NCBI GenBank assembly: GCA_938039305.1
Contig: CALHUZ010000537.1
Span: forward strand, 1 to 44,350
DNA: 44,350 nt
From: an uncultured Saprospiraceae bacterium
Lineage (GTDB): Bacteria > Bacteroidota > Bacteroidia > Chitinophagales > Saprospiraceae
Reading direction: 5' to 3'
Numbering within the stretch: position 1 is the stretch's first letter; each line of letters begins with the position of its first letter. The notes beneath the pieces are model-generated. The model was not told the DNA's origin, made no database searches, and was given only the letters and a program-made list of their open reading frames with translations. The translations under genes and the position numbers were made by a program. Of this stretch, positions 3,008 to 30,258 are shown in pieces.

Positions 3008-3033
3008 TCAGGATAGGGCAGGATAGTACTGGT
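3008..3033 (+). promoter_or_regulatory. Site A of the recurrent direct-repeat element (TCAGGA-tagg-GCAGGA-tagt-ACTGGT)
   Basis: Three 6-nt units at 10-bp phase, ending 70 nt before the ATG at 3103. A -7-like box TAAATTTA at 3046-3053 lies 22 nt after the second unit. The same element occurs at five other intergenic sites. Confidence 0.6.
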
Positions 3034-6100: not shown

Positions 6101-6633
6101 GTAGTGTATATGGTGCTCAATTTTTGATGGATGGATTATACAATGCTGGGGAAGCTGATTATGCTTTACAATTATTAGCCAGTACATCAGAGAGAAGTTG
6201 GTATAACATGATAAGAGAGGGCTCTAGCATCAGTATGGAGGCATGGGGCTACAAGAATAAAATAAACTTGGATTGGAATCATGCCTGGGGTGCCGTACCT
6301 GCTAATATTATACCAAGAGGTTTATGGGGTATACAACCTAAGACTGCAGGCTTTGGTATTGCTAGAATTAAACCACAAATGAGCAGTTTAAAATCGAGTA
6401 CAATAGAGGTACCAACAGTCAAAGGCGTTATCAGAGGAAATTATAAATACAATGGCGCTCGCCTTCAAACTTATAAAATAGAAATACCTGCTAATATGGT
6501 GGCAGAGTTTTCACTCAATAATCTTGAAGGAAAAGATTTAATACATAATGGTGAAAAAGTACCCTCTGCTTATGAAGTTATTAGATTAGCACCAGGCAGT
6601 CATACTATTCAGCTCAAAATTAATTCGTTCTAA
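3103..6633 (+). CDS. Bimodular enzyme: N-terminal S1 sulfatase fused to a C-terminal GH78-like alpha-L-rhamnosidase module
   Basis: aa ~30-460 carry [27 protein letters not shown] (C-x-A-x-R at nt 3337-3351) and [10 protein letters not shown]. From aa ~470 come GH78 N-domain motifs: [24 protein letters not shown]. The six-hairpin region follows, with [13 protein letters not shown] (nt 5392-5430) where GH78 normally has DCPxRExxGWxGDA. Single uninterrupted 1176-aa ORF with a signal peptide. Confidence 0.85.
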
Positions 6634-6839: not shown

Positions 6840-6875
6840 ACAGGATAGTACAGGACATATCCCAAATCATCCTGT
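6840..6875 (+). promoter_or_regulatory. Site B of the recurrent direct-repeat element (ACAGGA-tagt-ACAGGA, plus an inverted TCCTGT)
   Basis: Perfect ACAGGATAGTACAGGA at 6840-6855, ending 63 nt before the ATG at 6918. An inverted unit TCCTGT lies at 6870-6875. Confidence 0.6.
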
Positions 6876-7842: not shown

Positions 7843-10140
7843 ATGGCGTCAATCCAATGTGAAGCGATGATGAATAAAATACTCCTTGTCTCTTTCTACA
7901 GTATAGTGTTATATATGACATCGTGTGGAGATTCCAATTATAATTCCAACGACTACAAGGATTCTAACTTATCTATAGAAGAACGAGTAGAAGCACTACT
8001 TCCATTGATGTCGCTTGAGGAGAAGGTCGCACAAATGCGAATCTTTCATGCCAATATAGGTGTACGGACTGATGAAGATGGAAACTTACAACTATCTGAT
8101 AGAGTTGTTGAGAAGCTCAAATTAGGTATCGCTGGTATTAAAAATCCAGGGGAGCACCTTAGTCCAGTAGCGGCAGCAAAAATGAACAATGAATTACAGA
8201 AGTACATTATTGAAAATAATCGATGGGGGATACCAGCCTTATTTGTTACAGAATCATATAATGGGGTAGATGCTGAAGGCTGTACTAAATTTGGTAGGCC
8301 ACTTACTTCGGCGGCTTCATTTAATAGAGACTTGATCCATCGCATGTGGGATGTTGTAGGAAGAGAAGCCCGACTACGCGGAATGCATATGTGTCATTCT
8401 CCTGAAGCGGATATAGTTCGGGATCCACGGTTTGGGCGTATGAGTGAAGCGTGGGGAGAAGATACCTATCTTACTACAGAAATGGTTATCCAAGCCACTA
8501 AAGGAGTACAAGGTAATTATAAAGGATTGGGAGAGGGAACACATATCGGAGCAGTAGTAAAGCACTTTGCAGGATATGGACAGGTTTTAGGAGGATCTAA
8601 TTTTGCAGCAGTTGAAATATCAGAAAGAACCTTAATAGACGAAATATATCCACCTTTTGAAGCTGCAGTTAAAGAAGCCAGCACCTTGGGTGTAATGGCA
8701 TCTCATGGAGATCTGAATGGCATCGCAACTCATGGCAATAAAGCATTGTTAACTCACCTACTTCGGGATGAGTGGGGTTTTCTTGGGTACCTAATTTCCG
8801 ACTCCAATGATATTGCTAGATTATTCTATTTTATGAAAGTAGCAGAATCACCAGAAGCAGCAGCATTAATGGGATTAGAGGCTGGTATTGATATAGATTT
8901 GTATGCTGAAGATTCATATGCCTACCTACCAGAAATGGTCAAGTCTAATCCTGAAATTGAAGAATTAATTGACAGGTCTGTAAGAAGAGTGCTGAGGGTT
9001 AAATTTATTTTAGGGTTATTTGACAATCCGTATGTTGATGTTGCTGAAGTAGCAAAAGGCGTTCGATCTACTTCCTCTTTAGCACTTGCAAAAGAAGCTG
9101 ATTTAGAATCTATTATTTTATTAAAAAATGAAAACGAATTATTGCCTCTTAATAAAAATAGGCCAGCCAAGATCGCCCTTTTAGGCCCATTGTTACACGA
9201 ACGTACTCAATCCATGTTTGAATCCGTTGCTGGATCAAAATATACATTTACGGCGGATAGGGGATTTGCTCTAACTGATGAGCAAAAAGGAGCTCCAAAT
9301 TTGTTAGCTAGGGATCCGGAAGTCATAGCAAGATTGTTGTCCAAATCACGTCAGGCTGATGTGACAATATTGTTTTTAGGAGGTGATGAATATACCGCAA
9401 AGGAGGCATATTTTAATAATGCGGTTGGAGACCGTGCTACCATCGATCCTGTTGGGCCACAAGATGAGTTATTGGAAAAAATCAAGGCTTTGGGCAAACC
9501 TGTTATTGTAGTTTTAAAACATCGTAGAACCTTATCCATCAATACGATCTCCAAAGAGGCAGATGCGATTTTAGATACCTGGGATCTAAGTGAATACGGA
9601 GACGAGTCTACAGCAAGAATCATATTTGGGGAGACCGTTCCGTCAGGCAAACTACCTGTCACAGTACCTCGGTCGATTGGCCAGTTTCCATTTCACTATA
9701 GTATGAAGGAAATAAATTATAAAAAGGGCTACCTATTTTTGGAAGACGGTCCCATCTATCCATTTGGTTTTGGTCTCAGTTATACAACTTTTGAATATTC
9801 AGATATAGCTATATCTAGTGAAGTACTAACACCGGGAAGTGAAATAGAAGTTTCTGTCACTATTACCAATACTGGGGATGTCCGCGCAAAAGAGGTCGTT
9901 CAAATGTATATAAAAGATGAGATTGGTTCTGTTTCGAGGCCTGATAAAGAATTGAAAGGATTTGACAAAATAGAAATCGATCCGGGTGAAAGTAAAAATG
10001 TATCTTTCAAAATCACTCCCCAAATGCTGGCCTTTACTGGCCCCAGGATGGAACATATATTAGAAGCTGGAGACTATACTGTAATGGTTGGCACATCCTC
10101 CAATGAATATTTAGAAACGAAATTCAAATTAAAGAAATAA
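7843..10140 (+). CDS. GH3 beta-glycosidase (beta-glucosidase/beta-xylosidase type), lipoprotein
   Basis: GH3 motifs KHFAGYG and [10 protein letters not shown], plus the C-terminal [14 protein letters not shown] and a fibronectin-like tail. The likely true start is the Met at 7867/7870 (MNKILLV...TSCGDS). Confidence 0.9.
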
Positions 10141-10141
10141 G

Positions 10142-11269
10142 ATGAATAGAATTGTATTGATAAGTGTTACGATCTTTACTCTTTTCAGCTGTACTGTTAC
10201 CCAACAAACAGTGGCTCAAAATGCGATCAATAAGAATGAGATAAAAGCTTCAATGATCAAAGCTTTGGAATGGCAAGAAGCCCATCCTATCATGGCACTT
10301 GCGCCTACGGATTGGACTAATGGTGCATATTATACAGGTGTAGCCAGAGCTCATGAGACAACCAATGATATGATGTATATGGCGGCGTTGAAAAACCAGG
10401 GGTATCGGAATAATTGGAAAACCTTTAAAAGGTTGCATCATGCTGATGACGTGGCGATTTCATACAGTTACTTATATGTAGATAGGGCTGAGAATAGAAG
10501 AAATTTTGTTGATCTAACCTCTACAAAAGAATTTCTGGATGCACATTTGTATATGCCGGATCAATGGAAAGAAGGAAATGATAAAAGTGAAATGGGTAAA
10601 ACCATTTTATGGTGGTGGTGCGATGCACTATTCATGGCTCCTCCAGTAATTAATCTATATGCCAAACAAACTGGCCAACCAAAATATCTGGACGTAATGC
10701 ATAAGTATTATATAGAAACTTATGACCAGTTATACGATCAAGATGAACATCTATTTGCCAGGGATATGCGCTTTGTCTGGAAAGGTTCGGACAGAGATCA
10801 AAAAGAACCTAACGGGAAAAAAATATTTTGGTCTCGTGGTAATGGCTGGGTCATTGCTGGACTTGCTTTGTTATTAGATGACATGCCAATGGATTATAAG
10901 CACCGTCCCTTTTATGAGGAGTTATATCAGGAAATGGCTGCCAAAATATTAGCTATTCAACCAGATGATGGTCTGTGGAGAACGAGTCTTTTATGTCCAG
11001 AATCATATGATCATGGTGAGGTTAGTGGTAGTGGCTTTTACACTTTTGCACTTACATGGGGAATTAACAACGGCCTCTTAGATAGAAAATATATTTCAGC
11101 AGTGAAAAGAGCTTGGCAAGCATTAAAGGCATGTCAGCATAAGGATGGTAGAGTAGGTTGGGTTCAAAATATTGGCGCATTTCCCGAGCCTGCCTCTGCT
11201 GACAGCTGGCAAAATTTTGGAACAGGAGCTTATCTTTTGGCTGGTAGTGAAATACTAAAGTTGAAATGA
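10142..11269 (+). CDS. GH105/GH88-type unsaturated uronyl (rhamnogalacturonyl/glucuronyl) hydrolase
   Basis: YteR-like motifs [34 protein letters not shown] and [12 protein letters not shown]. The start is 1 nt after the GH3 stop, so the two are co-transcribed. Confidence 0.8.
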
Positions 11270-13474: not shown

Positions 13475-13490
13475 AACGGACAGTACAGGA
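13475..13490 (+). promoter_or_regulatory. Site C of the recurrent direct-repeat element (AACGGA-cagt-ACAGGA)
   Basis: Ends 70 nt before the ATG at 13560. A -7-like box TATATTTT at 13511-13518 lies 20 nt downstream. An extra GATAGT lies at 13461-13466. Confidence 0.55.
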
Positions 13491-13559: not shown

Positions 13560-15470
13560 ATGAAAAGACGTTCATTCATGCACTTGTCGGCAACTGGAAG
13601 TATGGCTGTCATGCTTCCGCTAAATGCATGTCGGGGTGACCTACATGACCATGGCGATATGGAGAACTTGACGGCTTTTCAAGCTGATTCGTTAAACCTG
13701 TTGACAACATGGTGTGATGCTATGATAAGAGATCAGGTAGATAATCCAAGTGATCCTGAGCAGCATGGTGCATTGTATTGTCATGCCTGTGGACTCATAC
13801 ATGGAAGGTGTCCTGATTCTGTTTATCCATTTTTATATATGGCCGATCATACAGGAGATCAGAAATATTTGGATGCTGCTATCAAGGTGATGGAGTGGTC
13901 AGTAAATGTTGACAAACCCGATGGAAGCTGGACGGTTGTGCCTAATCCAAAATCCTGGAATGGGACAACAGTTTTTGGAGCTATCGCTTTGGGTGAAGCC
14001 TTACATCACCATGGACATGTGCTCCCTGAAGTATTGAAGAAAAAATGGGAAGAACGGCTAAAAAGAGCCATCGAATTTGTGTACAACCGGTTCGACATGA
14101 ACTTCAGCCACATCAATTATAGGTTCACGGCTATTTATGCTTTGAATTTTCTTGGTAGATATTTCAATGAAGAAAAATACATCAAGAGAAGTAGGGAATT
14201 TGCTGCTGACATACCTAAGTGGTTAACTGAGCCCAATAAACTAATTTTTGGCGAAGACAGTCCAGACGATGAAAAAAGTGCAAAGGGGCTTTACCCAGTG
14301 GACCTTGGATATAACGTTGAAGAATCATTGAATGGAGTAGTACAGTTTGCTGTATTAGAAAAAGATGAATCCCTATTAGCTCTTTTAACGAGTGCACTGA
14401 ATGGTCATCTTGAATTTATGTTGCCAGACGGCGCATGGGACAATAGTTGGGGCACACGACAAAACAAATGGACTTATTGGGGCAGTAGAACTACAGATGG
14501 TTGTCAACCAGCATTTACATTAATGGCAGATAGAAATCCTGCTTTTGGTACTGCAGCTGTTCTAAATACAGAGTTGCTACAACGATGTACAGTTAATGGC
14601 CTATTGGCGGGTGGACTTCATTATGAAAGCTATGGTGAAGTCCCTTGTATACATCATACTTTTGCACATGCAAAGAGCTTAGCCTTTGTATTAGACCACA
14701 AGGATGTTCTAAAAAAAATCAATAAAGAGATACCGATACCACGAAGCACCGATGATGGAATAAAGTATTTTCCTGAGTTGGATGTTTGGCTTGGAGCAAG
14801 AGGCCCATGGAGATGTACTGTGTCTTCCTATGACCAGGTCTGGAAAAAGAAATACTCTGTACCTGGAATTGGAGGTTCTCTCTCTGTCCTTTGGCATGAA
14901 AAAGTAGGACCTCTTTTCACTGCAAGTATGGCAGAATATATAGAAGTAGAACCTTATAATCAACAACCACAACCTGGTGAAGACTTTTGTTTGACTCCAC
15001 GTGTGGAAAGGTATGTGGGCGATACATGGTACACAAGTGCTCACGATCTTACGGCTGAGGTAAAATATATCGATACAGAGAATGCGGTTTTATTTGATGT
15101 GGATGTGGTATTGACTGATAGGGAAAAGAAATCAGCCAAAGACAATAGTGAATTTAAAATGCAATATGCCATCGGCACAGATATTACAATTATAAAAGCG
15201 ACAAGGAATAAGCCATCAACTAATGGAGATACATTGGTCTTGCCTCTGATATCGCCATCCCATGACGAAGTCAAGATGATATCCAATACTCAACTTTCAA
15301 TAAAAAAGGACAATTGTACGGTAGTCGTAGAGTCGTCGGTTCCCATGTCGATAAAGCCTACCAAAAAAAGTCGAGTTTTCAATCAAGTGCCGGGAGTAGA
15401 AGTGGTGCCAATCATGGTGGTATTTCCAAAAGATACAGTTGAAGTGTCCTGCTCGATTAGGGTAGTCTAA
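13560..15470 (+). CDS. Hypothetical Tat-signal protein; helical-repeat N-domain plus beta-rich C-domain (family not recognised)
   Basis: The N-terminus MKRRSFMHLSATGSMAVMLPLNAC has a twin-arginine motif. aa ~40-400 show paired-helix repeats with DGSW / DGAWDNSWG loops, as in (alpha/alpha)6 toroids. aa ~420-636 are beta-strand-like. A Cys/His cluster CHACGLIHGRC lies at nt 13779-13811. It lies immediately upstream (61-nt gap) of a GH78 gene, consistent with co-transcription from site C. Confidence 0.6.
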   Translation: MKRRSFMHLSATGSMAVMLPLNACRGDLHDHGDMENLTAFQADSLNLLTTWCDAMIRDQVDNPSDPEQHGALYCHACGLIHGRCPDSVYPFLYMADHTGDQKYLDAAIKVMEWSVNVDKPDGSWTVVPNPKSWNGTTVFGAIALGEALHHHGHVLPEVLKKKWEERLKRAIEFVYNRFDMNFSHINYRFTAIYALNFLGRYFNEEKYIKRSREFAADIPKWLTEPNKLIFGEDSPDDEKSAKGLYPVDLGYNVEESLNGVVQFAVLEKDESLLALLTSALNGHLEFMLPDGAWDNSWGTRQNKWTYWGSRTTDGCQPAFTLMADRNPAFGTAAVLNTELLQRCTVNGLLAGGLHYESYGEVPCIHHTFAHAKSLAFVLDHKDVLKKINKEIPIPRSTDDGIKYFPELDVWLGARGPWRCTVSSYDQVWKKKYSVPGIGGSLSVLWHEKVGPLFTASMAEYIEVEPYNQQPQPGEDFCLTPRVERYVGDTWYTSAHDLTAEVKYIDTENAVLFDVDVVLTDREKKSAKDNSEFKMQYAIGTDITIIKATRNKPSTNGDTLVLPLISPSHDEVKMISNTQLSIKKDNCTVVVESSVPMSIKPTKKSRVFNQVPGVEVVPIMVVFPKDTVEVSCSIRVV

Positions 15471-15531: not shown

Positions 15532-18399
15532 ATGAAACATATAATAAAGTCTTTTCTCCTATTGACGACTTTTCTATTGATAGGTTCTTGTGCTCATACT
15601 AACAGAGATGGTGACAACTCAGTACTTGTCTTTGAAACATTGAACTGTGAGTCACAGCAGAATCCAATGGCAATAGAGAATACTCAGCCTCGATTTTCAT
15701 GGAAAGTGAACTCGTCGGGCTACAATAAAATGCAATCAGCATATCAGATCCTCGTAGCTTCAGATCCATCCCTGCTAAATGAAGACCATGCAAATCTATG
15801 GGATTCTAAAAAAGTATCCAGCGATAAATCGATCTATAATTCATATAAAGGGGCTGCCTTAGAACCCAAGGGAATATACTGGTGGAAAGTGCGCATCTGG
15901 GATGAAAATGAAAAGGTGTCTTCATGGTCTGAGGTGCAGTCTTTTGAGATGGGCTTGATGGATGAGTCTCAGTGGAAAGACGCTAAATGGATCAGTTTAA
16001 AAAAGGATAATCGCACATCAGAGCATAGATTCAGAGAATATAAAACAGGCAAGATGGATGAACCAACTTTGGTAACCAGCCAGCCGACAGGGTATTTTAG
16101 AAATACCATTCATTCTAATAAAAAGATCGAAAAAGCGCGTGCCTATATCTGTGGATTAGGCTACTATGAACTCTATATAAATGGAGAAAAGACAGGAGAT
16201 CAGGTGCTGGACCCTGCACCGTCTAACTATGATAAACAGGCTTACTACGTCAGCTATGACGTAAGTGATCAAATCCTAAAAGGAGAGAATGCGGTTGGAA
16301 TAATAATGGGTAATGGGTTTTATGGACAAGATATTTCATGGAAAAGAAATCCTGAATCTGAGCGCGATCTTTCTTTTGGCGCCCCTTCGGTCCGACTGTT
16401 AATAGAACTTCAATATTATGACGGGACTTCTGAGTCGTATACCACTGACGATACCTGGAAAGAATCAACTGGACCTATCGTATTTGATAATATCTACGGA
16501 GGTGACACCTACGATGCTCGATACGAGATGATAGGATGGGATGAGATCGGATATGATGATAGTGAATGGGGTACTGTGAAAACCGTCATCCCGAAGCTTA
16601 CTAAGATCAGTAGCCAACAGATGCCTCCCATCCGAAAGCTAAAAGAACTATCTCCCCAAAAAGTATTCAAGTCATCGAGGGGTAATTGGGTTGTTGATTT
16701 TGGGCAAAACATCGCAGGCTGGGTACGTATCAATGTGCAAGAAGAAGAAGGTCAAGTAATACAAATGATACCGACAGAAGCGCTTACACAGAGTGGCGAT
16801 GACATCTATCCGGGATCAACAGGAGGAGGGGCTAATGGAATGAAACAACTCCTCAAATATGTATGTAAAGGATCAGAATTAGAAACTTGGGAACCCAAGT
16901 TTAGTTATCATGGATTTCGGTATGTAGAAATCACCGGTATATCATCGGCGCCAGATGCTACAACCATCAAGGCCATATTGGTAGCTAACGATGTTGAGCA
17001 TAAGGGAGACTTCGATTGTTCTGATCCACTACTAAATAAAATGCATGATATCAGTATTTGGACAATTGTAGATAATCTGCACGGCATCCCAGAGGATTGT
17101 CCTCATCGTGAAAAATGTGGTTGGTTGGGCGATGCTCATGCTTTCTGTGAGTACGCCCTGTACAATTTTGAAATGAAGACCTTCTATGAAAAATATATGG
17201 AAGATATCCGTACGCAAATGCTAATAGTGCAGGGTAATGATGGTTCGAACGTCGACTATAAAGTCCCTACGATGATAGCCCCGGGGAAGCGTACATCGTC
17301 GATAGCTAAACTGGACTGGGGCATCGCTACAATCTACTTACCCTGGTATAATTATCTCTATTATGGTGATTCTACAGTCGTCATGGAATACTACGAGGAA
17401 ATGAAAGGGCTAACCGACTATTACCTCACTTTCAAGGATGAGCGAGGTATCATTGATAATGGGATGGGGGACTGGTGCCCACCAAGGTGGGATAGAAGAA
17501 AAAACCCAAGTGCAATGGAGTGTCATCCCGTAGTCTCGGCAAATGCATACTTCAATGACATCCTCGGCATCATGCAAAAGTTTGCGATTATGAATAAAGA
17601 TGTGGACTATGCTGCTAAGATGGCGTCGGAGCAACAAGATCTCTTTGAGGCATTTAATAAAGAATACCTCTCAATTATTGACGAAACAAACTACAAGTGG
17701 TATGGTAGTCAGACGGCTACCGTAATGGCGCTACAGTTTGACATGGTTCCAGAGGAGGATAATCAAGCCGTCATAGAAGGTTTAGCTCATGATATCCAGA
17801 GCATCAAGAAAGGCCATCACTCCACAGGCATTCATGGTAATCGATATATCTATACCGTGCTGACCGCCCATGACAAGGGTGATATCGCTCATGATATCTT
17901 GACTACACCAGACTTTCCAAGTCAGACATATGTGATGAACTATGGATTTACTACATGGCCGGAGCGACAGTTTGAATGGGCAGAGGTAGACGAGCTCACT
18001 AATTCACTCAATCATCCTATGCACAGTGGTTTTGCTGCATACTTCTATGAATCATTAGTAGGGATCAAACCTCAGTATGATTCACCAGGATATAAAAGGT
18101 TCAGTGTTCACCCTCAGTTTCCTAATCAGATCCGTCACGTCACGGCTTTGATCCCTACGCCTTATGGTGACATTGACTGTAAGTGGGAAAAAGAGAAGGA
18201 TGAATTCGCTATGGACTTAAAAGTTCCATTCAATACTGTGGCTGAGGTGCGTATGTCATCACAAGAAAAGGAGACCCTTGTGATTAATGACTTGCCTTGG
18301 GCCGAATTTATAGCTGCTGAAGGTATGTCGAATACTAATGCCTCAACGATAAGTCTCGGATCAGGTAGTTACGACATTCGCTATAAGGTGTTAGACTGA
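15532..18399 (+). CDS. GH78 alpha-L-rhamnosidase
   Basis: [25 protein letters not shown], the catalytic-domain signature EDCPHREKCGWLGDAHAF, and a typical C-terminal beta domain. Signal peptide with GSC. Confidence 0.92.
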   Translation: MKHIIKSFLLLTTFLLIGSCAHTNRDGDNSVLVFETLNCESQQNPMAIENTQPRFSWKVNSSGYNKMQSAYQILVASDPSLLNEDHANLWDSKKVSSDKSIYNSYKGAALEPKGIYWWKVRIWDENEKVSSWSEVQSFEMGLMDESQWKDAKWISLKKDNRTSEHRFREYKTGKMDEPTLVTSQPTGYFRNTIHSNKKIEKARAYICGLGYYELYINGEKTGDQVLDPAPSNYDKQAYYVSYDVSDQILKGENAVGIIMGNGFYGQDISWKRNPESERDLSFGAPSVRLLIELQYYDGTSESYTTDDTWKESTGPIVFDNIYGGDTYDARYEMIGWDEIGYDDSEWGTVKTVIPKLTKISSQQMPPIRKLKELSPQKVFKSSRGNWVVDFGQNIAGWVRINVQEEEGQVIQMIPTEALTQSGDDIYPGSTGGGANGMKQLLKYVCKGSELETWEPKFSYHGFRYVEITGISSAPDATTIKAILVANDVEHKGDFDCSDPLLNKMHDISIWTIVDNLHGIPEDCPHREKCGWLGDAHAFCEYALYNFEMKTFYEKYMEDIRTQMLIVQGNDGSNVDYKVPTMIAPGKRTSSIAKLDWGIATIYLPWYNYLYYGDSTVVMEYYEEMKGLTDYYLTFKDERGIIDNGMGDWCPPRWDRRKNPSAMECHPVVSANAYFNDILGIMQKFAIMNKDVDYAAKMASEQQDLFEAFNKEYLSIIDETNYKWYGSQTATVMALQFDMVPEEDNQAVIEGLAHDIQSIKKGHHSTGIHGNRYIYTVLTAHDKGDIAHDILTTPDFPSQTYVMNYGFTTWPERQFEWAEVDELTNSLNHPMHSGFAAYFYESLVGIKPQYDSPGYKRFSVHPQFPNQIRHVTALIPTPYGDIDCKWEKEKDEFAMDLKVPFNTVAEVRMSSQEKETLVINDLPWAEFIAAEGMSNTNASTISLGSGSYDIRYKVLD

Positions 18400-18465: not shown

Positions 18466-19425
18466 CTATTTTTCTACTTTCTCATAGGTAGTATTGGCCC
18501 ACCGTATCTGTGCTCGCCCTCCTTTGACACGATATGCACCGTATCTGATGCCAGATTGTATGCCCTTTTCGGGTTCAGGGATATCCCATCTATACTCCTC
18601 ACCTCCGATGATTGCATCGGCATAGTGTATCTTTTTAGATGTATCCGTAGAGTCTACTCTGAAGCCTACCTTGAGCTCTACATCCACGCAGAGTCCTTTT
18701 TTGATATTGGTGAGAAAGACTACCTCGCGGCCATCCTTTCCTTCTCCACCTCGATAGTTTATTTGCTCTCGATATAGATCAAATGATACTTGTTCATCTT
18801 TAGTCTCTTCGGTGTCACCATAGACAGGTTTAGCCAGATAGAGACAGATCGCAGGATCTGGAGATCCACCTCCCCCTGTATGTTTTCCTTTAGCCTGCAT
18901 GATATAGGAGCCATCGTTGTTCGTGTTATTAGTTTTACCAGTCTCGAGTATGCGTACTGTACCTGTGAAATGTGCATAGCTTCCTATCTCTGCAGATTGA
19001 GATCGGGACAGTGATCTTTCTATCCGAGGCTGCAGGCTATTGTTATCTTGATTATTAGATCCATCTGTGATGTTGTAGACGCCCCAGATGGTTTCTCCTA
19101 TTGATATTTCACTGTAGTTAGCATAGCAGCTTCTGTCATCTATGGTGCCCACATTGCTGGGGGCAGAGATGTCTGTAGCTCTCACTGCATTAGCGCCCTC
19201 GGGAGTGCAGGTCTCATATGTGCCGATGAGCTCATCTGCTACGTATACACCATTCTCTTTTGTGCTTGGAGGGGTTTGATCTTCCTGTTCCATTTCGTCA
19301 TCTTGGTCTGATGAGGGGGCGTTATCCATCATAATATCATCGTCATCGGTACATGATATGAAGCTAGAGATTAGTAGCGCTGCGAGTAGGCAGAGAGTGA
19401 TGCTATGGGCTTGTGATATTTTCAT
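18466..19425 (-). CDS. Hypothetical surface lipoprotein; beta-jelly-roll-like, candidate polysaccharide lyase or binding protein (family not recognised)
   Basis: Lipobox FISC (Cys codon 19351-19353) followed by the acidic tract [25 protein letters not shown]. The body has spaced motifs loosely like PL7/alginate_lyase2-type jelly rolls: [28 protein letters not shown]. The three + strand ORFs overlapping it are shorter and have no recognisable features. Confidence 0.6.
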
Positions 19426-19805
19426 GTTTTGTTATTTGGTTATGGCTTCTCTATATATTGTGATGGTAGACCATCGCCTTTAGTCAAATCGGACCGATAA
19501 TGCCAGATACAGTAACAGTAACAAAGATTGATAAATGTTTAAAACGATACTTTTATTGATACATGAGCACTTTTTTGAAACCAGATTATAAGGTATAAGG
19601 AAAGAATCGTCAGTCTTTGTTGATTTCAATCGGTAGCCTAATTGTGATCACCTATTCAAATTTGATGACTTCATATGATGCTTCATTTGGAAAAGTATCT
19701 ATAAATTTTAAAACGTTGTTAATGACATACTTTTAAGTTAATGCCACAACCTCCATTTGGTAAATTTGCATTTAGATAATTATTTGTAGAGTAATAAAAC
19801 AGCTT

Positions 19806-19832
19806 AAAAAGGCATGCAGACTTGTGTCTGCA
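19806..19832 (-). terminator. Candidate rho-independent terminator downstream of susD
   Basis: On the minus strand, stem TGCAGAC/GTCTGCA (19815-19821 with 19826-19832), 4-nt loop, then TGCC and TTTTT (19806-19810). It lies about 110 nt after the susD stop. Confidence 0.4.
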
Positions 19833-19943
19833 CACCTTTCGTATGAAAAAACTATCTACTTTCTTGTGGAACCTATTATTTCTTGGGTCACGTAAATTAG
19901 TCAAATCACTCTTTTATACAATGTTCATTGCACGTAACAAATC

Positions 19944-21497
19944 TTAATAGCCTGGATTTTGTGTCAAATTTGGATTTAATTGCAACTCATTTAAAGGAAT
20001 TGGCAGCAAAACGTGATAGTCTTTTATATTCTCGTTTGGAGCATAGGTTTTAAATTTAGCGTTGCGAACAACGTCCAAATAAATACCCCATCTGATTAAA
20101 TCGTATCTTCTTGTTGCCTCAGCTGCTAACTCCCATTTTCGCTCGTCGTAAATAGCTTCCCTGAAGCCTTGTTGGTCAAGTCCTGTCAAATCCCATTCAT
20201 CTTGAGTTTCATAGGCACGTTGCCTGATCGGATGAATATATTGGTAAGCCCCATCAGGTCCATTCAATTCGTTTTCGCACTCTGCTGCCATTAAATAGAC
20301 ATCACCAAGTCTAAATACCAATCTATTATCTCCGTGATTGAAACGAGGCGAAGTCTCAAAATTAAGGGACATAAATTTAGGCATGTAGGTATGATTCAAT
20401 TCGAAACCCGCATACGAATCCATAATGTTTAATGGTCTTCGTAGATCATTAGTGGGGAATTTCTCATAAAAATCTACTGATGCTATCTGCAGTCCAGTGC
20501 CATTAAACTCCTGTCCATTGTCTCTTAGGGCAGTTCTTAAAGGGCCCCTATCTGCTGCATTTGCCGGTTCGTCTCTAATACGTGGGTTGAAGAGACTTGG
20601 TCTCCAATAATTATTTCCTGCAAATGAACGACCTGGGAAAGCCGGCTCGAATTGACCTGTAATATCCTTAGCAAAATCTAAAGACCATATAATTTCTGCA
20701 TTGTATTCATTGGCCGGATCAAAAACTTCAGCATAAGTTGGAAGTAACTCGTGCGGTGACCCATTAATGATTTCTAAACATTTGCTTAGACCAGCTTGCC
20801 AATTTTGATCTGCCATATGAATTTTTGCTTCAATTATCGCTGCTGCCCATTTAGTGGCCCTACCTCTATTCTCAGTCGTATTAACAGATGGCAGGTTGTT
20901 TTGCGCAAACGTCAAGTCGTCCAATACACTGTCTATAATTACATCCTTACTGGTTCTTCCCAGTTCTGCAATTTCATTTAAGGTCAATAGTTCATTGTAA
21001 AATGGTGCGTCACCCCAAAGATTTGTTATATGCCAATAGGACAATGCACGCAAAAATCTAGCCTGAGCTATAACATCGGCCTGAACATCTTGTGAGATGT
21101 CCTGATTGCCGTCCACTCTATCAATAATAACATTGGCATTTAGGATAACTCTATATAAATTTTGCCATGTATCCGAAACACTCATTAATTGGTTCGAGGC
21201 ATCGGCAGTAACTGCACTTAAAGTATAATTCCCCATCACCTCAAATATTGGATGAGTTCGATTTGGTTCTATAATATCGACTCCGTTATCATACCAATTG
21301 TCTAACCCCGCTTGCCCATAGATAGAGTTGTTTTTAATTACAGAATATACACCCGTTATGGCTTGATTTGCATCCGCATCGCTAGTGAAAAAGTTTTCTG
21401 GAGCAATAATGTTTCGTGGTTCTTCCTCTAAAAAATCTTCACAACCAATCAATGTGATTATTAGGAAGACGTACAGAAATATGTTGTGTGTTTTCAT
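19944..21497 (-). CDS. susD: SusD/RagB-family outer-membrane glycan-binding lipoprotein
   Basis: Lipobox LIGC followed by the acidic EDFLEEE. SusD-like TPR-rich N-half (RFLRALSYWHITNLWGDAPF) and C-terminal YDERKWELAAEATRRYDLIRWG. Immediately downstream of susC. Confidence 0.9.
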   Translation of the reverse strand: MKTHNIFLYVFLIITLIGCEDFLEEEPRNIIAPENFFTSDADANQAITGVYSVIKNNSIYGQAGLDNWYDNGVDIIEPNRTHPIFEVMGNYTLSAVTADASNQLMSVSDTWQNLYRVILNANVIIDRVDGNQDISQDVQADVIAQARFLRALSYWHITNLWGDAPFYNELLTLNEIAELGRTSKDVIIDSVLDDLTFAQNNLPSVNTTENRGRATKWAAAIIEAKIHMADQNWQAGLSKCLEIINGSPHELLPTYAEVFDPANEYNAEIIWSLDFAKDITGQFEPAFPGRSFAGNNYWRPSLFNPRIRDEPANAADRGPLRTALRDNGQEFNGTGLQIASVDFYEKFPTNDLRRPLNIMDSYAGFELNHTYMPKFMSLNFETSPRFNHGDNRLVFRLGDVYLMAAECENELNGPDGAYQYIHPIRQRAYETQDEWDLTGLDQQGFREAIYDERKWELAAEATRRYDLIRWGIYLDVVRNAKFKTYAPNENIKDYHVLLPIPLNELQLNPNLTQNPGY

Positions 21498-21509: not shown

Positions 21510-24500
21510 TTAAAATGTTACGTTAAGTCCCAAACTTAAAATTCTAGCATTTGGATACTCACCATTTGAAAAACCTTGAGCAATATTACCCAAACCACCT
21601 CTGCCAAATCTACTGGACTCTGGATCAATTAATCTGAAATCAGATAATAGTAACAAATTAGTTCCTGAGGCATAAAGCGACATTTTTTCTATACCCTTCC
21701 AGCCCATTTTGTTAACTGGAAAATTATATGTCAAGCGGACATTCTTTAGACGTAAATGTGTACCATCTTCAATCTCAAAAGAATTGGGTTGATAGGCACC
21801 TTCAACAAACCCTGGTCTAGGAATATCCGATGTTGGGTTGTTAGCCGACCAGTAATCAGCAACTTCTGCATACTTTGGAAGCTCACCACGAATAAAAAAG
21901 CTATTACGTGATCTTAAATTATAGACTTCATTACCAACGGTACCTTGTATATAAATACTTAAATCAAGATTTTTGTAAGAGATATTGTTTCCAAATCCGA
22001 AAATTAGATCTGGCCATGGATTACCTAATACTTCAAAATCCTCGTTAGATATGGTGCCATCTCCATTTGTGTCTTGATATCTGGGGCCTCCAACAGCATT
22101 TGTTGCTGGATCTTGACCTGAAGCAGCAATTTCTTCTTGACTTTTCCAAGTTCCTAAATACTGTGCTCCCGTAAATACTGGTGATGGTTCACCAACGATT
22201 AATCTTAAGTTCCCCGCACCAAGAATCTGGTCTACGACTACATCTATAAATTCTTCTCCACCAAGATCCAATATCTTATTCTTATTCGACGATAAGGTGA
22301 TAGTAGAATTCCATTTAAAATCAGGCTTTGAAACATTATATGAAGTAAGCAAAAACTCCCATCCTTTGTTCTCTAAAGAACCAATATTTCGCAATTGATT
22401 AGTATACCCTGTTTGTCTTGGTATAGTGACATTCAATAACAGGTCATTAGTCTCTTTTTGGTAATAGTTGAATTCTGTAAAGAGTCTACCATCGAATAGC
22501 GAGGCTTCTAAAGCAATATCAAATGCTGTAGTTGTTTCCCATTTCAAATCTGGATTTGCTGGCCTTCCCAGTAGTGCGCCTGGAACTTCAATGCCATTAA
22601 ACGAGGTATTTGCTTCTACTAAAACACCTAAGGTATTATATGGAGAGATGGCCTGATTTCCTGATTTACCATAACTGACTCTTAATTTTAAATCCTCAAA
22701 GGTGGATTGATTTTGCATAAAAGGTTCTTGCGAAATTTTCCAAGCAGCTGCTACAGATGGATAAAACTCATATTTATTACCTGGAGCAAACACCGAACTT
22801 CCGTCACTTCTACCTACTAATGTTAATAAGTACTTGTCGTTAAACGAATAGTTAAGCCTTCCGAAGAAGGATACAATTGAATTTTGGGTAAAAGAAGAAC
22901 CCAGTAAGTTCCTTAATGGATCGCTCCCTGTACCTAAATTGTTAAATGTAGTTGCATCTGTTGTAAAACCGAAAGCTTGTGAAAAAGCAGTCTCTCTGGT
23001 TGTTTTCTGAAAAGATGCTCCACCTAAAAGAGTGTAGCTATGATTGTCATTAAAGTCCCCTGAATATTGAATGGTATTTTCGTTATTCCATCCAAAAGAG
23101 GACACTGATCCGATTTTAGCATTACTATCTGTAGTAGGAAGATCAGGTCTTTGGCTAGACGTAAACTCATTTCTTTTAGAAGTAGTAATATCGGGATTAA
23201 ATGTTGAGCGGAGTATTAGATTTTCAATAGGACTATACTCTAAAAATACTGTCCCTAACAAATTGTTTATAGAAGACTCATCTATATCCAATTGTGATGT
23301 TGCAACAGGATTGTTAAAGGGATTTCCAACTACTTCATTTCTTCCATTAAAAGAACCATCATCATTAAATACGGGCTGGGTTGGTAAAATGCCAAGTAGA
23401 CCGCTATAGCCAACAACACCATTTTCCTGATTAATTCTGGAATAATTTAAACGGAAACCTGCATTCAATTTATCACTTAACTTAAAATCCAAGTTTGATC
23501 TAAAAATAAATTTTTGGATTCCAGAATTATCAATGAGACCATCTTGGTCGTAATAATTTAGCGAGTTATAATAATTAACATCACCATTTTCTGAAGAACC
23601 AGCTATAGAAACATCGGCATTATATATTGGTGATGGGTTTAACAAAAGGTCGAAAAAGTTATTATCTGGATAGTCTGATGGATTTCCTGGAAATGGCTCA
23701 GCTACACCTCTAAGTATTGCATCTTGATTAGTGTAATCTATTTGTTGTGCTTGATTTAAATATGCGGGTCGCTCAGGTACCATCTGCGTACTAGTATATA
23801 GTCCCACACTAACTTGAGGTTTACCATTTCCACCTCGGGCTCCGCTTTTAGTGGTAACTAATACAACACCATTTGCACCTCTAGACCCATAGATAGCAAT
23901 TGAGGATGCATCTTTTAGTATCTCAATGGATTCCACATCATTGGCATTAAGATTATTTAGGTTGAAATTCGTGCCGACAATAATTCCATCAATAACCCAA
24001 AGTGGTTCATTACTACCTGTAATGGAGTTGCCACCTCTAACTCTTATGGATGTACCTGCACCAGGTGCACCACTAGTTTGTGTAACCTGCACACCTGCGG
24101 CCCTTCCTTGTAAAGCTTGATCAATTCTCGAAACAGGTACGGCTGCAACATCTTCGGCGCCTATAGAAGATACTGAACCTGTTAGATCTGACTTCTTTTG
24201 TTTACCGTATCCTACGATAACTACATCACTTAAGATTGAACCTTCTTCGAGGGTCACATCAACAGTTGATTGATTAGTTACATCAACTTCTTGATCTTGA
24301 TGTCCAGCATAGGTAAAGACTAAGACCTTATCTCCGTCCTGAAGACTTAAAGAGTAGGTTCCGTCAAAATCAGTAATGGTACCATTTAAAGTACCTCGTT
24401 GTAATATATTTACACCTATCAGTGTTTCTCCATTAGAGGAGTAAACTGTTCCAGTTATGTCCTGACCAAAGCCGTAAAAGCTTGTCAGCGTAAGAAACAG

Positions 24501-24581
24501 AATGTACAAAAGAGATGAATTTTTTGGTGGAGAGTATTCGACCCTCAGATAATGATTAGCAATTTTTTGAAATCTTATCAT
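21510..24581 (-). CDS. susC: SusC-like TonB-dependent outer-membrane transporter
   Basis: Carboxypeptidase-regulatory-like N-domain (ITGTVYSSNGETLIGVNI), TonB-box/plug region (DVVIVGYGKQKKSDLTGSV, IEILKDASSIAIYGSRGANGVVLVTTK), a 22-strand-size barrel, and a C-terminal LGLNVTF. Confidence 0.92.
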   Translation of the reverse strand: MIRFQKIANHYLRVEYSPPKNSSLLYILFLTLTSFYGFGQDITGTVYSSNGETLIGVNILQRGTLNGTITDFDGTYSLSLQDGDKVLVFTYAGHQDQEVDVTNQSTVDVTLEEGSILSDVVIVGYGKQKKSDLTGSVSSIGAEDVAAVPVSRIDQALQGRAAGVQVTQTSGAPGAGTSIRVRGGNSITGSNEPLWVIDGIIVGTNFNLNNLNANDVESIEILKDASSIAIYGSRGANGVVLVTTKSGARGGNGKPQVSVGLYTSTQMVPERPAYLNQAQQIDYTNQDAILRGVAEPFPGNPSDYPDNNFFDLLLNPSPIYNADVSIAGSSENGDVNYYNSLNYYDQDGLIDNSGIQKFIFRSNLDFKLSDKLNAGFRLNYSRINQENGVVGYSGLLGILPTQPVFNDDGSFNGRNEVVGNPFNNPVATSQLDIDESSINNLLGTVFLEYSPIENLILRSTFNPDITTSKRNEFTSSQRPDLPTTDSNAKIGSVSSFGWNNENTIQYSGDFNDNHSYTLLGGASFQKTTRETAFSQAFGFTTDATTFNNLGTGSDPLRNLLGSSFTQNSIVSFFGRLNYSFNDKYLLTLVGRSDGSSVFAPGNKYEFYPSVAAAWKISQEPFMQNQSTFEDLKLRVSYGKSGNQAISPYNTLGVLVEANTSFNGIEVPGALLGRPANPDLKWETTTAFDIALEASLFDGRLFTEFNYYQKETNDLLLNVTIPRQTGYTNQLRNIGSLENKGWEFLLTSYNVSKPDFKWNSTITLSSNKNKILDLGGEEFIDVVVDQILGAGNLRLIVGEPSPVFTGAQYLGTWKSQEEIAASGQDPATNAVGGPRYQDTNGDGTISNEDFEVLGNPWPDLIFGFGNNISYKNLDLSIYIQGTVGNEVYNLRSRNSFFIRGELPKYAEVADYWSANNPTSDIPRPGFVEGAYQPNSFEIEDGTHLRLKNVRLTYNFPVNKMGWKGIEKMSLYASGTNLLLLSDFRLIDPESSRFGRGGLGNIAQGFSNGEYPNARILSLGLNVTF

Positions 24582-24617: not shown

Positions 24618-24663
24618 CAAATATATATTTCGGCAAGTAACAAGACATCCTGTGCTGTACTGT
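24618..24663 (-). promoter_or_regulatory. Site D of the recurrent element (ACAGTA-cagc-ACAGGA on the minus strand) plus a consensus -7 box
   Basis: On the minus strand, ACAGTACAGCACAGGA occupies 24663-24648. Then 22 nt, then a perfect Bacteroidota -7 box TATATTTG (24625-24618). The ATG of susC at 24581 is 67 nt from the repeat. Confidence 0.6.
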
Positions 24664-25938: not shown

Positions 25939-27465
25939 TTATTTGGATATTTTTGTGGCAATAATTCTCGTCTTTTGTTCTACAAAATAAGGTTGAAAAG
26001 AGTAAGATGAATGAGCGTCCCAAGGCGCATTGAAAACAGGCAAGTACTGTTTTAATGTATCTATAGTGCCTTTGTAGCTCAGATTATTTGCTTGATTAGT
26101 AAATTCGTCAGGATCATAAAGATGATCATACAGTTCTTCTTCACCATCTTCATATTGGATGTATCTAAATCGCTGTGATTTTATCGAATGATTATTCATT
26201 CCAAATGTGCTAATGGCGACATGATCCTCAGAATTTATTGAATCTTGCATGAATGGAAGCAGGCTAATTCCTTCATTTTTATCATATGAAGGAAGGCCGC
26301 ATAGTTCTAATAGTGTAGGGTAGATGGAAAGTAGTTCTACTGGCTTATCAATCTTGATTCCTTGAGGAAGGTTTGGGCCAGCAAAAAAGAGGGGAGTATT
26401 GGTGGCGACATTCCAAAGTGCATGCTTGGCGAACGTACCTTTTTCTCCTAGTCGGTAACCATGATCCGACCATAATACAATGACGGTATTATCAGCATAG
26501 TTACTGTTTTCTAAAGCATCTAACAACCTTCCTAATTCATAATCCACATAACTTATACATGCCAAGTAAGCCTGAATAATTTTAGGCCATTCACCACTTT
26601 TTATTGCCCATTCTGTGGAGGGCATCATAGGTAAGTCGTTTATAAGATGTGCGACTTGCGGCACATCATCTAAATCGTCGCTTTGATAAGGAGGCGTAAC
26701 AATACTATCCAATGGATGAAGATCGAACCACTTTTGTGGTACATGTAAGGGGACATGTACTCTGAGGAATCCTACGCCTAAGAAGAAAGGTGTTTCATAA
26801 ATTTTGGATAGCCGTTCGATCGCCCAATCAACAGATTGATGATCTGGCATTAATGAATCAGCATCAGGGAAAGCTCCCCAGTCTGTATTTGTTCTACCAT
26901 ATTTTGTCCGATCAGCGGTTCCAAATCCATCCCATACAAACCTCTTTTCAGGATAAGGTCCAAATCCTTTTACTCTTCCTCCCGATTCATTAAAAAGACC
27001 TTGAGGAGCATGACTATGAAATAACTTTCCGATACCCATAGTATGATAACCATGGTTTCTAAAATACTCTGGCAAGAAGATAATGTCCCGAGTTGCAGGA
27101 TTCTCAGATCGTATGTTGTCATCTGATATTGCACCATAAATGCCCGTTGTAGAAGGGCGCAATCCTGTCATGATAGATGCTCGTGAAGGGGCGCAAAGTG
27201 GCGACTGGCAATGGGCGTCTGAAAATAATACGCCTTGTGCCGCCAACCTTTCAAGATTGGGCGTTTTTGCATTAGAAAAACCTTTTAGACCTTCAATCCA
27301 CGTATTTAAATCGTCAACAGCAATGAAGAGAACATTAGGTGTTTGATTTTGACTGTTGCTTAAATATTTTTGGGGATCATCATTATTACAAGCACTCCAA
27401 ATAAATAAAGTCAAGATCAAGAGTAGGAATACCTTTCTTGGCATAGCGCTTAATGACCTTCCCAT
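25939..27465 (-). CDS. S1 sulfatase (formylglycine-dependent), lipoprotein
   Basis: PNVLFIAVDDLN, CQSPLCAPSRASIMTGLRPSTTG, GKLFHSH and WSDHGYRLGEK. The alternative start at MPRKVF (27444) would remove the 16-nt overlap with the upstream gene. Confidence 0.9.
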   Translation of the reverse strand: MGRSLSAMPRKVFLLLILTLFIWSACNNDDPQKYLSNSQNQTPNVLFIAVDDLNTWIEGLKGFSNAKTPNLERLAAQGVLFSDAHCQSPLCAPSRASIMTGLRPSTTGIYGAISDDNIRSENPATRDIIFLPEYFRNHGYHTMGIGKLFHSHAPQGLFNESGGRVKGFGPYPEKRFVWDGFGTADRTKYGRTNTDWGAFPDADSLMPDHQSVDWAIERLSKIYETPFFLGVGFLRVHVPLHVPQKWFDLHPLDSIVTPPYQSDDLDDVPQVAHLINDLPMMPSTEWAIKSGEWPKIIQAYLACISYVDYELGRLLDALENSNYADNTVIVLWSDHGYRLGEKGTFAKHALWNVATNTPLFFAGPNLPQGIKIDKPVELLSIYPTLLELCGLPSYDKNEGISLLPFMQDSINSEDHVAISTFGMNNHSIKSQRFRYIQYEDGEEELYDHLYDPDEFTNQANNLSYKGTIDTLKQYLPVFNAPWDAHSSYSFQPYFVEQKTRIIATKISK

Positions 27466-28881: not shown

Positions 28882-30258
28882 CTATTTAAATTCCAACAAT
28901 AACAATGGGCTTAATGGCCCCTTCGGAATAATTTTGGGAGCATGTTTTCGAAATCCGCCATGCTCTGCTTCCCACTTAAGAACGTATCTTGAGTTGGCTT
29001 TTTCATGTGTTCTTTTGTCATAAGCAAGACGAACCCTCATATCAGGATCACTAGAAATCTTATCATATAAATCTTCTGGATATAGCTTCTGAATATTTGG
29101 CACTTCATCGGAATGTTCAAATGTGTTAAGGTCAATAATGTATTGTCCAGCATCTCCTTTTTCTGTAGTCCAATCGATAGCTAATATGCCATCATCTGAT
29201 AATCCTACAAAATTGAATTGTCCTCCTATGCTCATAAAGGCTCCTCCGTCAATAAATTTCCATCTAAAGTCCCAATCGGATATTTTTTTAGAAACCCAAA
29301 CGTCTCCAATATGCCTAGCAAGATATAATTGAGTGAGTCCTTGTTCATCATATTTAGTGTATCCGATGATGGGTTCGTCATTATTATCAAGCATCAATTT
29401 GTAACGGCTATTGTGCAAGCCTCCTTTAGATGGCGTGTTGTCGACCAGAACTTTGCTATCATCAGGTGTAAAAGGCAATGAGACGGGTTCGTTATTGATA
29501 TTTTTCCAATTTTTTAAATCAGATGTCTTAGCATAGCAAATATGATGGCTGGTTTCAACCATAGGTGTCCATCTCCACATCCAGGCAAAATGAAAGTCTC
29601 CTTTAGAGTCTTTAACCCAATGATGGTAGGCTGCTCTTGTATCGGTTTTCTCTATTCCCTCAAACAACGGTTGCTTGAGATATCTTTCCCATTTTCCTTT
29701 ATGCGGATCAAATCGATTGATCAGAATGTTTCCATTTCCACAAGACCCAGACCGGTAAGAAAAGAGTAGTTTGCCAGATTTATCATTGAAGAAACTTGGA
29801 TAAGTCACGCTCTCTTCATCGTTTCCCACCATTACGTTTAATTCTTGCATGCTGGTTACGTCGTAAGGTTTCGAGCTTCTGTAATAGGCCAGTGGGTCTA
29901 CATGTTGGTTACCGCTTACATGGATATAGCCTAATTCGTCTATTCCAAGTTTTACAGAATTGTGTGAATCCCAAATAAGCTGATTTGGCAAGCTTTTTTT
30001 TATCCATTGGTTACTATTGACATTTCTGGATGCAACAGTCATCATTCGATTCCGATCGTAGTAGACTATAAACTGAAGTTCTCCAACAGTTTTCATATCA
30101 AACCTTACTCCATTTGCTGCCCAAACAGAATCAACTTCGAGTATTTCGAGAGTAACCGGTTCATTAGTTGGATTCAACTGAGCCATCAAAACAGTTGTAG
30201 CTGAGCTGAGATAAAATATTACAATCAGTATGAATATTTCTCTATGTAAGTACTTCAT
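28882..30258 (-). CDS. BNR_4-like beta-propeller protein (GH145 / PL24-PL25-PL42-like clan candidate)
   Basis: Signal peptide, then repeated blade-like segments with His-rich motifs: FIVYYD, WDSHNSVKLGIDELGYIHVSGNQHVDPLAYYRS, AYHHW, FHFAWMWRW, SHHICYAKTSD. This matches my recollection of BNR-4 repeat proteins. No search was run. Confidence 0.55.
   Translation of the reverse strand: MKYLHREIFILIVIFYLSSATTVLMAQLNPTNEPVTLEILEVDSVWAANGVRFDMKTVGELQFIVYYDRNRMMTVASRNVNSNQWIKKSLPNQLIWDSHNSVKLGIDELGYIHVSGNQHVDPLAYYRSSKPYDVTSMQELNVMVGNDEESVTYPSFFNDKSGKLLFSYRSGSCGNGNILINRFDPHKGKWERYLKQPLFEGIEKTDTRAAYHHWVKDSKGDFHFAWMWRWTPMVETSHHICYAKTSDLKNWKNINNEPVSLPFTPDDSKVLVDNTPSKGGLHNSRYKLMLDNNDEPIIGYTKYDEQGLTQLYLARHIGDVWVSKKISDWDFRWKFIDGGAFMSIGGQFNFVGLSDDGILAIDWTTEKGDAGQYIIDLNTFEHSDEVPNIQKLYPEDLYDKISSDPDMRVRLAYDKRTHEKANSRYVLKWEAEHGGFRKHAPKIIPKGPLSPLLLLEFK

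Follow-up and report, generated by a model that had tools for sequence, protein, structure and literature searches.

The window, by which we mean the whole stretch of 44,350 nucleotides analysed here (contig CALHUZ010000537.1 of GenBank assembly GCA_938039305.1, from an uncultured Saprospiraceae bacterium), contains on its minus strand an open reading frame (ORF) whose product we assign to the PL28 family of ulvan lyases, enzymes that begin the breakdown of ulvan, a polysaccharide of green seaweeds. An earlier reading made from the letters alone (hereafter the sequence-only reading) had placed at 18466-19425 a 319-aa ORF for a surface lipoprotein, proposed as a candidate endo-lyase or glycan binder, and the ORF was found exactly there, beginning with an ATG codon. 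The features of the gene and of its product are as follows.

18466..19425, minus strand: PL28 ulvan lyase gene (P0001), 319 aa; ORF with ATG start, Pfam PF22826 match, PDB matches 6D2C/6D3U
18472..19236, minus strand: PL28 catalytic beta-jelly-roll domain, aa 64-318, from the Pfam envelope, AlphaFold2 (AF2) and Foldseek
19024..19026, minus strand: Arg134 in RIERS (134-138), corresponding to NLR48 Arg117; alignment to the 6D2C chain, invariant in 118/118 sequences
18889..18897, minus strand: Gln177-Ala178-Lys179 in MQAKGKH (176-182), corresponding to NLR48 Gln160 and Lys162; alignment, Q and K invariant
18532..18534, minus strand: Tyr298 in YGAYRVKGG (295-303), corresponding to NLR48 Tyr281; alignment, invariant in 118/118 sequences
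19354..19425, minus strand: predicted signal peptide, aa 1-24, of the signal peptidase II (SPII) type; sequence pattern, AF2 helix 6-20, shared by the short homologues
19351..19353, minus strand: Cys25, predicted lipidated +1 cysteine in the lipobox F-I-S-C; ACA on the plus strand, TGT on the minus strand; conserved in the family
19336..19350, minus strand: T26-D27-D28-D29-D30, motif resembling the lipoprotein export signal (LES) at +2 to +6; sequence and published LES
19240..19335, minus strand: acidic disordered linker, about aa 31-62; low model confidence and acidic composition

The assignment to PL28 was based on a full-length family match. The Pfam profile of the PL28 ulvan lyases, PF22826, matched the ORF product with an E-value of 5.5e-115 and 383.5 bits (cut-off 27), covering profile positions 4-257 of 257 with an envelope at aa 64-318. 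A search of the whole genome with the same profile gave 384.4 bits and the same domain coordinates, and this is the single PL28 in the source genome, which is 85%-complete. Beyond PL28, no Pfam match was obtained in the product even at E-values up to 10, with the alginate-lyase families included, and no NCBIfam model matched it. A phmmer search of the PDB returned 6D2C/6D3U, annotated as "Ulvan lyase", with an E-value of 3.9e-109. These are the crystal structures of NLR48, a short PL28 ulvan lyase from Nonlabens ulvanivorans (Ulaganathan et al. 2018, J Biol Chem, as cited in PMC11395424), and the identity of the query to this enzyme is 61.9% over 278 residues by BLASTP and about 62-64% across methods. 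We regard membership of the PL28 family as practically certain. The suggestion of an endo-lyase, for which ulvan had been named among the test substrates and PL28 among the structures to compare, is supported by this full-length match.

The AF2 model of the protein was built on 68 homologues and had a mean predicted local distance difference test score (pLDDT) of 86.3 and a predicted template modelling score (pTM) of 0.78; in the catalytic domain, block means of pLDDT were mostly 92-98, with a few blocks at 81-85. Comparison of the model with known structures using Foldseek gave 6D3U and 6D2C as top matches, and the alignment to 6D3U_A had an E-value of 7e-36, a target-normalised template modelling (TM) score of 0.95, a root mean square deviation of 1.4 A and 63% identity over 261 columns, so that the predicted model shows a beta-sandwich jelly roll like that of NLR48. 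The next matches were jelly-roll alginate lyases of families PL7, PL18 and PL36, with E-values of 1e-6 to 1e-7, TM scores of 0.45-0.64 and 10-14% identity. With enzymes of these families (AlyA1, 3ZPY; A1-II', 2CWS; PA1167, 1VAV) the query shares the fold class and the location of the active site, in the cleft formed by the inner sheet. The jelly-roll body had been proposed in the sequence-only reading together with a structural comparison, and that comparison returned the NLR48 fold, with PL28 best and PL7 and PL18 next.

The same reading had pointed to three spaced motifs, described as similar to those of PL7 and non-canonical. All three are present (RIERS, MQAKGKH and YGAYRVKGG), and the PL7-like layout was retained, as the spaced Arg, Gln-x-(His or Lys) and Tyr motifs are analogous to those of PL7; the description as non-canonical was not, since these are the canonical catalytic motifs of PL28. 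The canonical PL7 motifs R(T/S)E(L/V)R, Q(I/V)H and YFKAGxYxQ are not matched by the query, which reads RIERS, QAK and YGAYRVKGG. Unlike PL7, it carries a Lys in place of the catalytic His, and its predicted substrate is ulvan, not alginate. Membership of PL7 itself was rejected on the basis of these motifs, the 10-14% identity and the absence of any alginate-lyase match in Pfam.

Catalytic residues were located by alignment to the 6D2C chain, whose numbering was taken as the published one because 6D3U differs from it, K to M, exactly at chain position 162; the offset from NLR48 to the query was constant at +17 across the three motif regions. In NLR48, Gln160 and Arg117 are proposed to neutralise the carboxylate of the +1 uronate, Tyr281 is the proposed base and acid for glucuronic acid (GlcA), and Lys162 is the proposed base for iduronic acid (IdoA), a role assigned by structural alignment with PL7 and PL13 (review PMC11395424). 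The corresponding Arg134, Gln177, Lys179 and Tyr298 are each invariant in 118/118 homologous sequences, as are His182 and the three cysteines Cys73, Cys100 and Cys194, and 73 invariant columns are common to the whole PL28 family alignment. The query also resembles NLR48 in being a single-domain protein of about 300 aa with identical R/Q/K/Y catalytic residues. A fourth cysteine of the mature domain, Cys246 (18688-18690), is an extra residue relative to NLR48, and its position is occupied by P, E, A or Q in the 117 other homologues. The closest named relative is the locus L002 of an uncultured Saprospiraceae metagenome-assembled genome (MAG), whose orthologue is 88% identical at the amino acid level. 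The ratio of nonsynonymous to synonymous substitution rates (dN/dS) relative to this orthologue was 0.09 in the catalytic domain and 0.34 in the signal peptide plus linker, and the former value indicates purifying selection on the gene, as expected for a working enzyme. It is highly probable, judging from these sequence comparisons, that the protein is catalytically competent on ulvan. NLR48 reportedly has, in addition, a structural Ca2+ site that stabilises the N-terminus of the domain.

The N-terminus of the product was then considered with respect to export. Experiments in Capnocytophaga canimorsus defined the LES, which was also extended to B. fragilis and F. johnsoniae. In this signal, two or more acidic residues near the +1 Cys come after a residue that is polar or positively charged; its variants include K-(D/E)2 and Q-A-(D/E)2, the B. 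fragilis consensus is SDDDD and the C. canimorsus optimum is C-X-K-(D/E)2 (PMC5080379). A lipidated Cys followed by TDDDD had been quoted from the letters as agreeing with the surface signal described for Bacteroidota; the residues are present as quoted and do agree with the published LES (PMC5080379). The sequence C-TDDDD provides a polar residue, at least two D/E within +2 to +6 and a net negative charge, and an SPII signal with a lipobox cysteine is recognisable upstream at the pattern level (MK...h-region...F-I-S-C25). The query thus resembles the LES lipoproteins of Sus-like systems (Lauber et al. 2016, mBio, PMC5080379) in its SPII signal, +1 Cys, polar residue and acidic run, and in having its gene beside susC/susD. 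Unlike the C. canimorsus type of LES, it has no Lys or Gln at +2/+3 and represents the B. fragilis-type SDDDD variant.

Downstream of these residues, the AF2 model had pLDDT values below 50 at residues 30-43, and the values stayed low as far as about residue 60. Of the 47 residues that follow Cys25, those of the LES included, 16 are D/E and a single one is K/R. An acidic N-terminal linker ahead of the jelly roll can also be observed in the alignment with NLR48, and that of the query is more acidic and extends further, with 47 residues after the Cys compared with a family median of 37. The linker is the least conserved part relative to L002 (58-60% nucleotide identity), and the mature protein of the L002 orthologue starts with C-TDDDG.

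The architecture of the homologues was surveyed using the 120 best, which comprised 96 short forms (about 300 aa) and 24 long forms (about 515 aa). A lipobox Cys in a hydrophobic stretch ending in ...[FS]SC was present in 88/96 short homologues, and the remaining 8 mostly look like N-terminally truncated gene calls. In the 88 lipoprotein-type sequences, position +4 is D/E in 69% and position +5 in 80%, with the consensus C-Q-S-(D/E)-(D/E)-E. The long homologues have a signal peptidase I (SPI) signal, C-terminal lectin-like modules (PF24208/PF14200) and a PF18962 sorting domain of the type IX secretion system (T9SS). Examples include P0035, P0038, P0057, P0105 and P0114, and in the homologue tree most of the long forms are gathered in two clusters, while one other stands by itself. 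The query is placed among the lipoprotein forms together with Saprospiraceae and Neolewinella sequences, and the nearest tree neighbour of NLR48 (P0068) is likewise an LES-type lipoprotein. The Formosa agariphila enzyme FaPL28 (P30_PL28, BN863_22190, CDF79931) and NLR42 of N. ulvanivorans belong to the same family as the query and were placed among the long forms by their reported sizes only (54.7 and 46 kDa). Unlike the long forms, the window protein has no lectin-like or T9SS modules and would be anchored by lipid with an LES instead. The PL28 domain occurs in two export formats, an LES lipoprotein and a T9SS-secreted multimodular protein, both of which would deliver it outside the cell.

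The closest relatives of the gene are found in Saprospiraceae MAGs, a host lineage different from that of NLR48, and an identical protein is present on a contig of ENA assembly ERZ6863811. In some genomes of the Polaribacter/Algibacter type, PL28 is present two or three times in a span of about 10 kb, as in the following loci.

L040, 2621-3412; 10001-10765: two PL28 copies
L044, 390-1133; 2563-3342; 10166-10936: three PL28 copies
L045, 4983-5597; 10001-10765: two PL28 copies

Lipidation of Cys25 and surface exposure were both deduced from sequence patterns, and exposure of the PL28 lipoprotein at the surface appears quite probable. The strongest competing explanation is that the same lyase is a periplasm-facing lipoprotein or a soluble periplasmic enzyme that acts on imported oligosaccharides. 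Several enzymes of the locus (GH78, GH88/105, GH3 and sulfatases) have lipobox-like N-termini and presumably face the periplasm, the LES rule was defined outside the Saprospiraceae lineage, and ulvan lyases can also take tetramers to dimers (PMC8511951). However, TDDDD at +2 to +6 is almost the same as the B. fragilis surface consensus SDDDD (PMC5080379), and, within the first 55 residues of the window proteins, acidic residues right after the lipobox Cys were found only in PL28, SusD (C-EDFLEEE) and one sulfatase (C-NNDDPQ), a distribution that fits a surface PL28 with the other lipoproteins in the periplasm. Moreover, the acidic start is conserved across the 88 lipoprotein-type homologues, the alternative PL28 architecture uses T9SS and so also leads outside, the gene directly follows susD, a position where surface components are usually encoded, and the F. 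agariphila PL28 lyase was reported to be extracellular (PMC6168547). Taken together, a periplasmic location seems improbable. The sulfatase mentioned above (25939-27465, minus strand) has the N-terminus ...LFIWSA-C-NNDDPQ, with an LES-like acidic pair at +4/+5 that is not present in the other sulfatases and glycoside hydrolases of the locus, and it may be surface-exposed as well.

The genes that surround PL28 in the window were analyzed with respect to a possible polysaccharide utilization locus (PUL). Those closest to it are listed here.

19944-21497, minus strand: susD, with SusD_RagB (PF07980) and SusD-like_3 (PF14322), upstream of PL28
21510-24581, minus strand: susC, with Pfam domains Plug, TonB_dep_Rec_b-barrel and CarbopepD_reg_2, upstream of PL28
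15532..18399, plus strand: convergent GH78 alpha-L-rhamnosidase, with five GH78-associated Pfam domains
13560-15470, plus strand: 636-aa protein, PL37-like candidate by its size and its co-occurrence with PL28

The convergence of the ORF with a GH78 gene, already seen from the letters, was borne out, and the stop codons of the two genes are 66 bp apart. Besides SusC/SusD and two GntR-type regulators, the window contains six sulfatase-domain ORFs (that at 3103-6633 encodes a sulfatase-GH78 fusion), two more GH78 genes, two GH3 genes, one GH88/105 gene, a BNR_4 gene and an L-rhamnose catabolism operon with aldolase/dehydrogenase, isomerase, kinase and lactaldehyde-type dehydrogenase genes. By analogy with PUL H of F. 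agariphila, whose enzyme set it matches (PMC8511951), the window is a standard ulvan PUL. In PUL H, P30_PL28 and P10_PL40 perform the initial depolymerisation of ulvan (PMC8511951); FaPL28, the initial depolymeriser of its PUL, has neighbours like those of the query, namely a PL37/P29-like gene, GH78, GH105, GH3 and a sulfatase-GH78 fusion. The L002 locus has the same order, SusC-SusD-PL28-(convergent GH78)...sulfatase-GH88-GH3. Additionally, Saprospiraceae have been described as core members of the communities on the surfaces of Ulva and other macroalgae (PMC10233909). The sequence-only reading would have been weakened by homologues that are not associated with PULs; this was not the case overall, as ulvan-PUL-type neighbours were found in 27 of the 42 homologous loci for which 9 kb or more of sequence was available.

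Two further proteins of the window deserve mention. The 636-aa protein had no match in Pfam, NCBIfam or the PDB sequences; its homologues co-occur with PL28 in 8/42 related loci and directly adjoin it in L030, L038, L043 and L045. Its size and its adjacency to PL28 resemble those of F. agariphila BN863_22180 / P29_PDnc (PL37), which was initially reported to be a lyase and subsequently an oligosaccharide dehydratase (PMC6168547, PMC8511951). The BNR_4 (PF15892) protein at 28882-30258 (minus strand) has a BT3686-type alpha-L-rhamnosidase as its best NCBIfam model (195 bits, cut-off 700), and its homologues co-occur with PL28 in 10/42 loci. It is also important to mention that the convergent GH78 (GC 0.423, GC3 0.415) and PL28 (GC 0.454, GC3 0.416) have the highest GC content and third-position GC content (GC3) of the 24 window ORFs, for which the means are 0.388 and 0.326; PL28 is about 2.9 standard deviations above the others. 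This could reflect amino acid composition, expression-linked codon bias or separate acquisition, and the shared high values (z about 2.9) give a hint of a separately acquired module.

The neighbouring genes also bear on the substrate. A lyase of PL28 fold could have shifted to another sulfated rhamnan containing GlcA/IdoA, or to glucuronan, as might be suggested by the long terminal branch of the query in the homologue tree, by its lineage-specific Cys246, by a host lineage outside the Flavobacteriaceae, in which PL28 enzymes were characterised, and by the suggestion that mixed sulfated rhamnose-containing glycans may be targets of macroalgal PULs (PMC10233909). Nevertheless, the neighbouring set is the ulvan set (sulfatase-GH78 fusion, GH78, GH3, GH88/105 and the PL37-like gene) and the catalytic domain closely resembles NLR48, with its 73 columns invariant throughout the family, which makes such a shift very improbable. 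Least probable of all is a non-catalytic surface glycan-binding protein derived from the lyase fold, the second option of the sequence-only reading: although the position downstream of susD is typical of such proteins and jelly-roll and lectin folds are among the distant structural neighbours, the four catalytic residues and His182 are intact and family-invariant, the identity to an enzyme with demonstrated lyase activity is 62-64%, the catalytic domain is under constraint (dN/dS 0.09), and a binder is not needed to explain a member of a curated enzyme family.

The explanation that best accounts for the whole, with a probability of roughly 0.88, is that the ORF encodes a surface-anchored PL28 endo-ulvan lyase that feeds an ulvan PUL. 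The activity, the substrate and the endo mode are those suggested by homology to NLR48 and FaPL28. According to this model, the protein would be exported through Sec, cleaved by SPII and then lipidated at Cys25, and T-D-D-D-D, acting as an LES, would drive the lipoprotein to the outer face of the outer membrane, where the acidic disordered linker of roughly 35 residues would space the 28-kDa jelly-roll domain away from the membrane. The cleft of the jelly roll would bind ulvan and cleave it by beta-elimination at linkages between 3-sulfated rhamnose and uronate, Rha3S-(1,4)-GlcA/IdoA. Gln177 and Arg134 would neutralise the uronate carboxylate, H5 would be abstracted by Tyr298 (for GlcA) or Lys179 (for IdoA), and Tyr298 would protonate the leaving O4. 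The products would be unsaturated oligosaccharides, which the neighbouring SusC/SusD could import and which periplasmic GH88/105, PL37-like dehydratase, GH78, GH3 and sulfatases could dismantle to rhamnose and uronates, the rhamnose being used by the adjacent rhamnose-catabolism operon.

Several observations weigh against this explanation. The function of the ORF product is deduced from homology at about 62-64% identity. The organisms in which the LES was defined (Capnocytophaga, Bacteroides and Flavobacterium) lie outside the Saprospiraceae, and it is assigned to the query from the sequence pattern; Thr at +2 with Asp already at +3 corresponds to the B. fragilis-type variant and not to the C. 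canimorsus optimum C-X-K-(D/E)2. The terminal branch of the query is fairly long (0.31 compared with a median of 0.094), and this long branch together with the unshared Cys246 may indicate some shift in fine specificity. PUL linkage is common, not universal: 15/42 homologous loci have no detectable ulvan-PUL neighbours. Two of these 15 were inspected. One holds a Tamlana PL28 copy near GH43 and GH2 genes, and in the other, from Neolewinella agarilytica (L004), a lipoprotein-type PL28 (9962-10915) is an orphan outside any recognisable PUL, with a GntP permease, a phage-tail-sheath-like protein, an S15 X-Pro dipeptidyl peptidase and an amidase as neighbours.

Transcription of the gene was considered from the region that separates it from susD and from repeats found elsewhere in the window.

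19426..19943, minus strand: susD-PL28 intergenic region, 518 bp, 31.7% GC; coordinates and alignment to L002
19807..19840, minus strand: terminator-like hairpin whose start is 103 nt past the susD stop, with a U-rich tail; folding, inverted repeat I1
24648..24663, minus strand: ACAGGATAGTACAGGA copy nearest PL28, upstream of susC
3008-3033; 6840-6855; 13475-13490; 24648-24663 (minus strand); 35416-35431 (minus strand); 36639-36654: ACAGGATAGTACAGGA matches

The sequence-only reading had described a 518-bp gap to susD containing a terminator-like hairpin, and had considered the gene to be independently transcribed. The length of the gap is exact, and direct folding confirmed the hairpin, which has a 15-bp stem and a 4-nt loop, a free energy of -22.4 kcal/mol (z = -4.99; 0/200 shuffles fold as well) and is followed by the U-rich tail UUUAAGCUGUUUUAUU; it is largely conserved in L002. 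A stricter scan for consensus terminators listed nothing on the minus strand in the gap, the hairpin included, which we attribute to the extended stem using up part of the T-run. The hairpin might terminate transcription fully or partially, or might stabilise the RNA. As to independent transcription, the claim was not upheld, as no gene-specific promoter-like element was found. Matches of sigma-70 type in the gap numbered 5, with 5.1 expected from shuffles. No minus-strand copy of the Bacteroidota -7 motif TAnnTTTG occurs there, and the motif is not enriched in the window (38 compared with 48 expected). Rfam returned no family in the gap, the only match being at chance level and inside the ORF. 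A conserved non-coding element was rejected, as the gap is less conserved relative to the 413-bp gap of L002 (59% identity, with two large indels) than the flanking genes (85-88%). Similarly, a bidirectional terminator in the 66-bp spacer between PL28 and GH78 was not supported, as this spacer folds no better than shuffles (z = -1.06).

An operator-like direct repeat, ACAGGATAGTACAGGA, composed of two ACAGGA half-sites 10 bp apart, was observed in the window. With up to 3 mismatches it has 7 matches, compared with 0.41 expected, and all of them lie in operon-leading intergenic regions of the PUL or the rhamnose operon (six leaders); the susD-PL28 gap has no copy. One of the two GntR/PBP regulators probably binds to this repeat. 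PL28 may be transcribed by read-through from the susC promoter, attenuated by the hairpin, or from an own, unrecognised promoter outside the operator control of the regulon. A more speculative and rather unlikely extension is that PL28 is a regulatory outlier, a constitutively or separately expressed "sentinel" that releases the first ulvan oligosaccharides to induce the regulon. This idea arises because PL28 is the only transcription-unit-sized block of the PUL without ACAGGATAGTACAGGA, because the strong hairpin and the 518-bp AT-rich spacer insulate it from susCD, and because of the high GC and GC3 that it shares with the convergent GH78.

The structure and mechanism of PL28 ulvan lyases and the existence of ulvan PULs are already established, and the query is a further orthologue of a characterised family. 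No characterised PL28 ulvan lyase from Saprospiraceae was found in the literature searched, within which this lineage is new for PL28 characterisation. The analysis provides a confident annotation for a gene that is mostly called "hypothetical protein" in the database entries of its relatives. Moreover, it documents two PL28 export formats, of which the lipoprotein format is the commoner among the closest homologues and reaches Saprospiraceae-like bacteria associated with seaweed. The predicted enzyme has a single domain of 28 kDa and comes from another lineage, and this compact lyase may be a candidate for work on ulvan saccharification.

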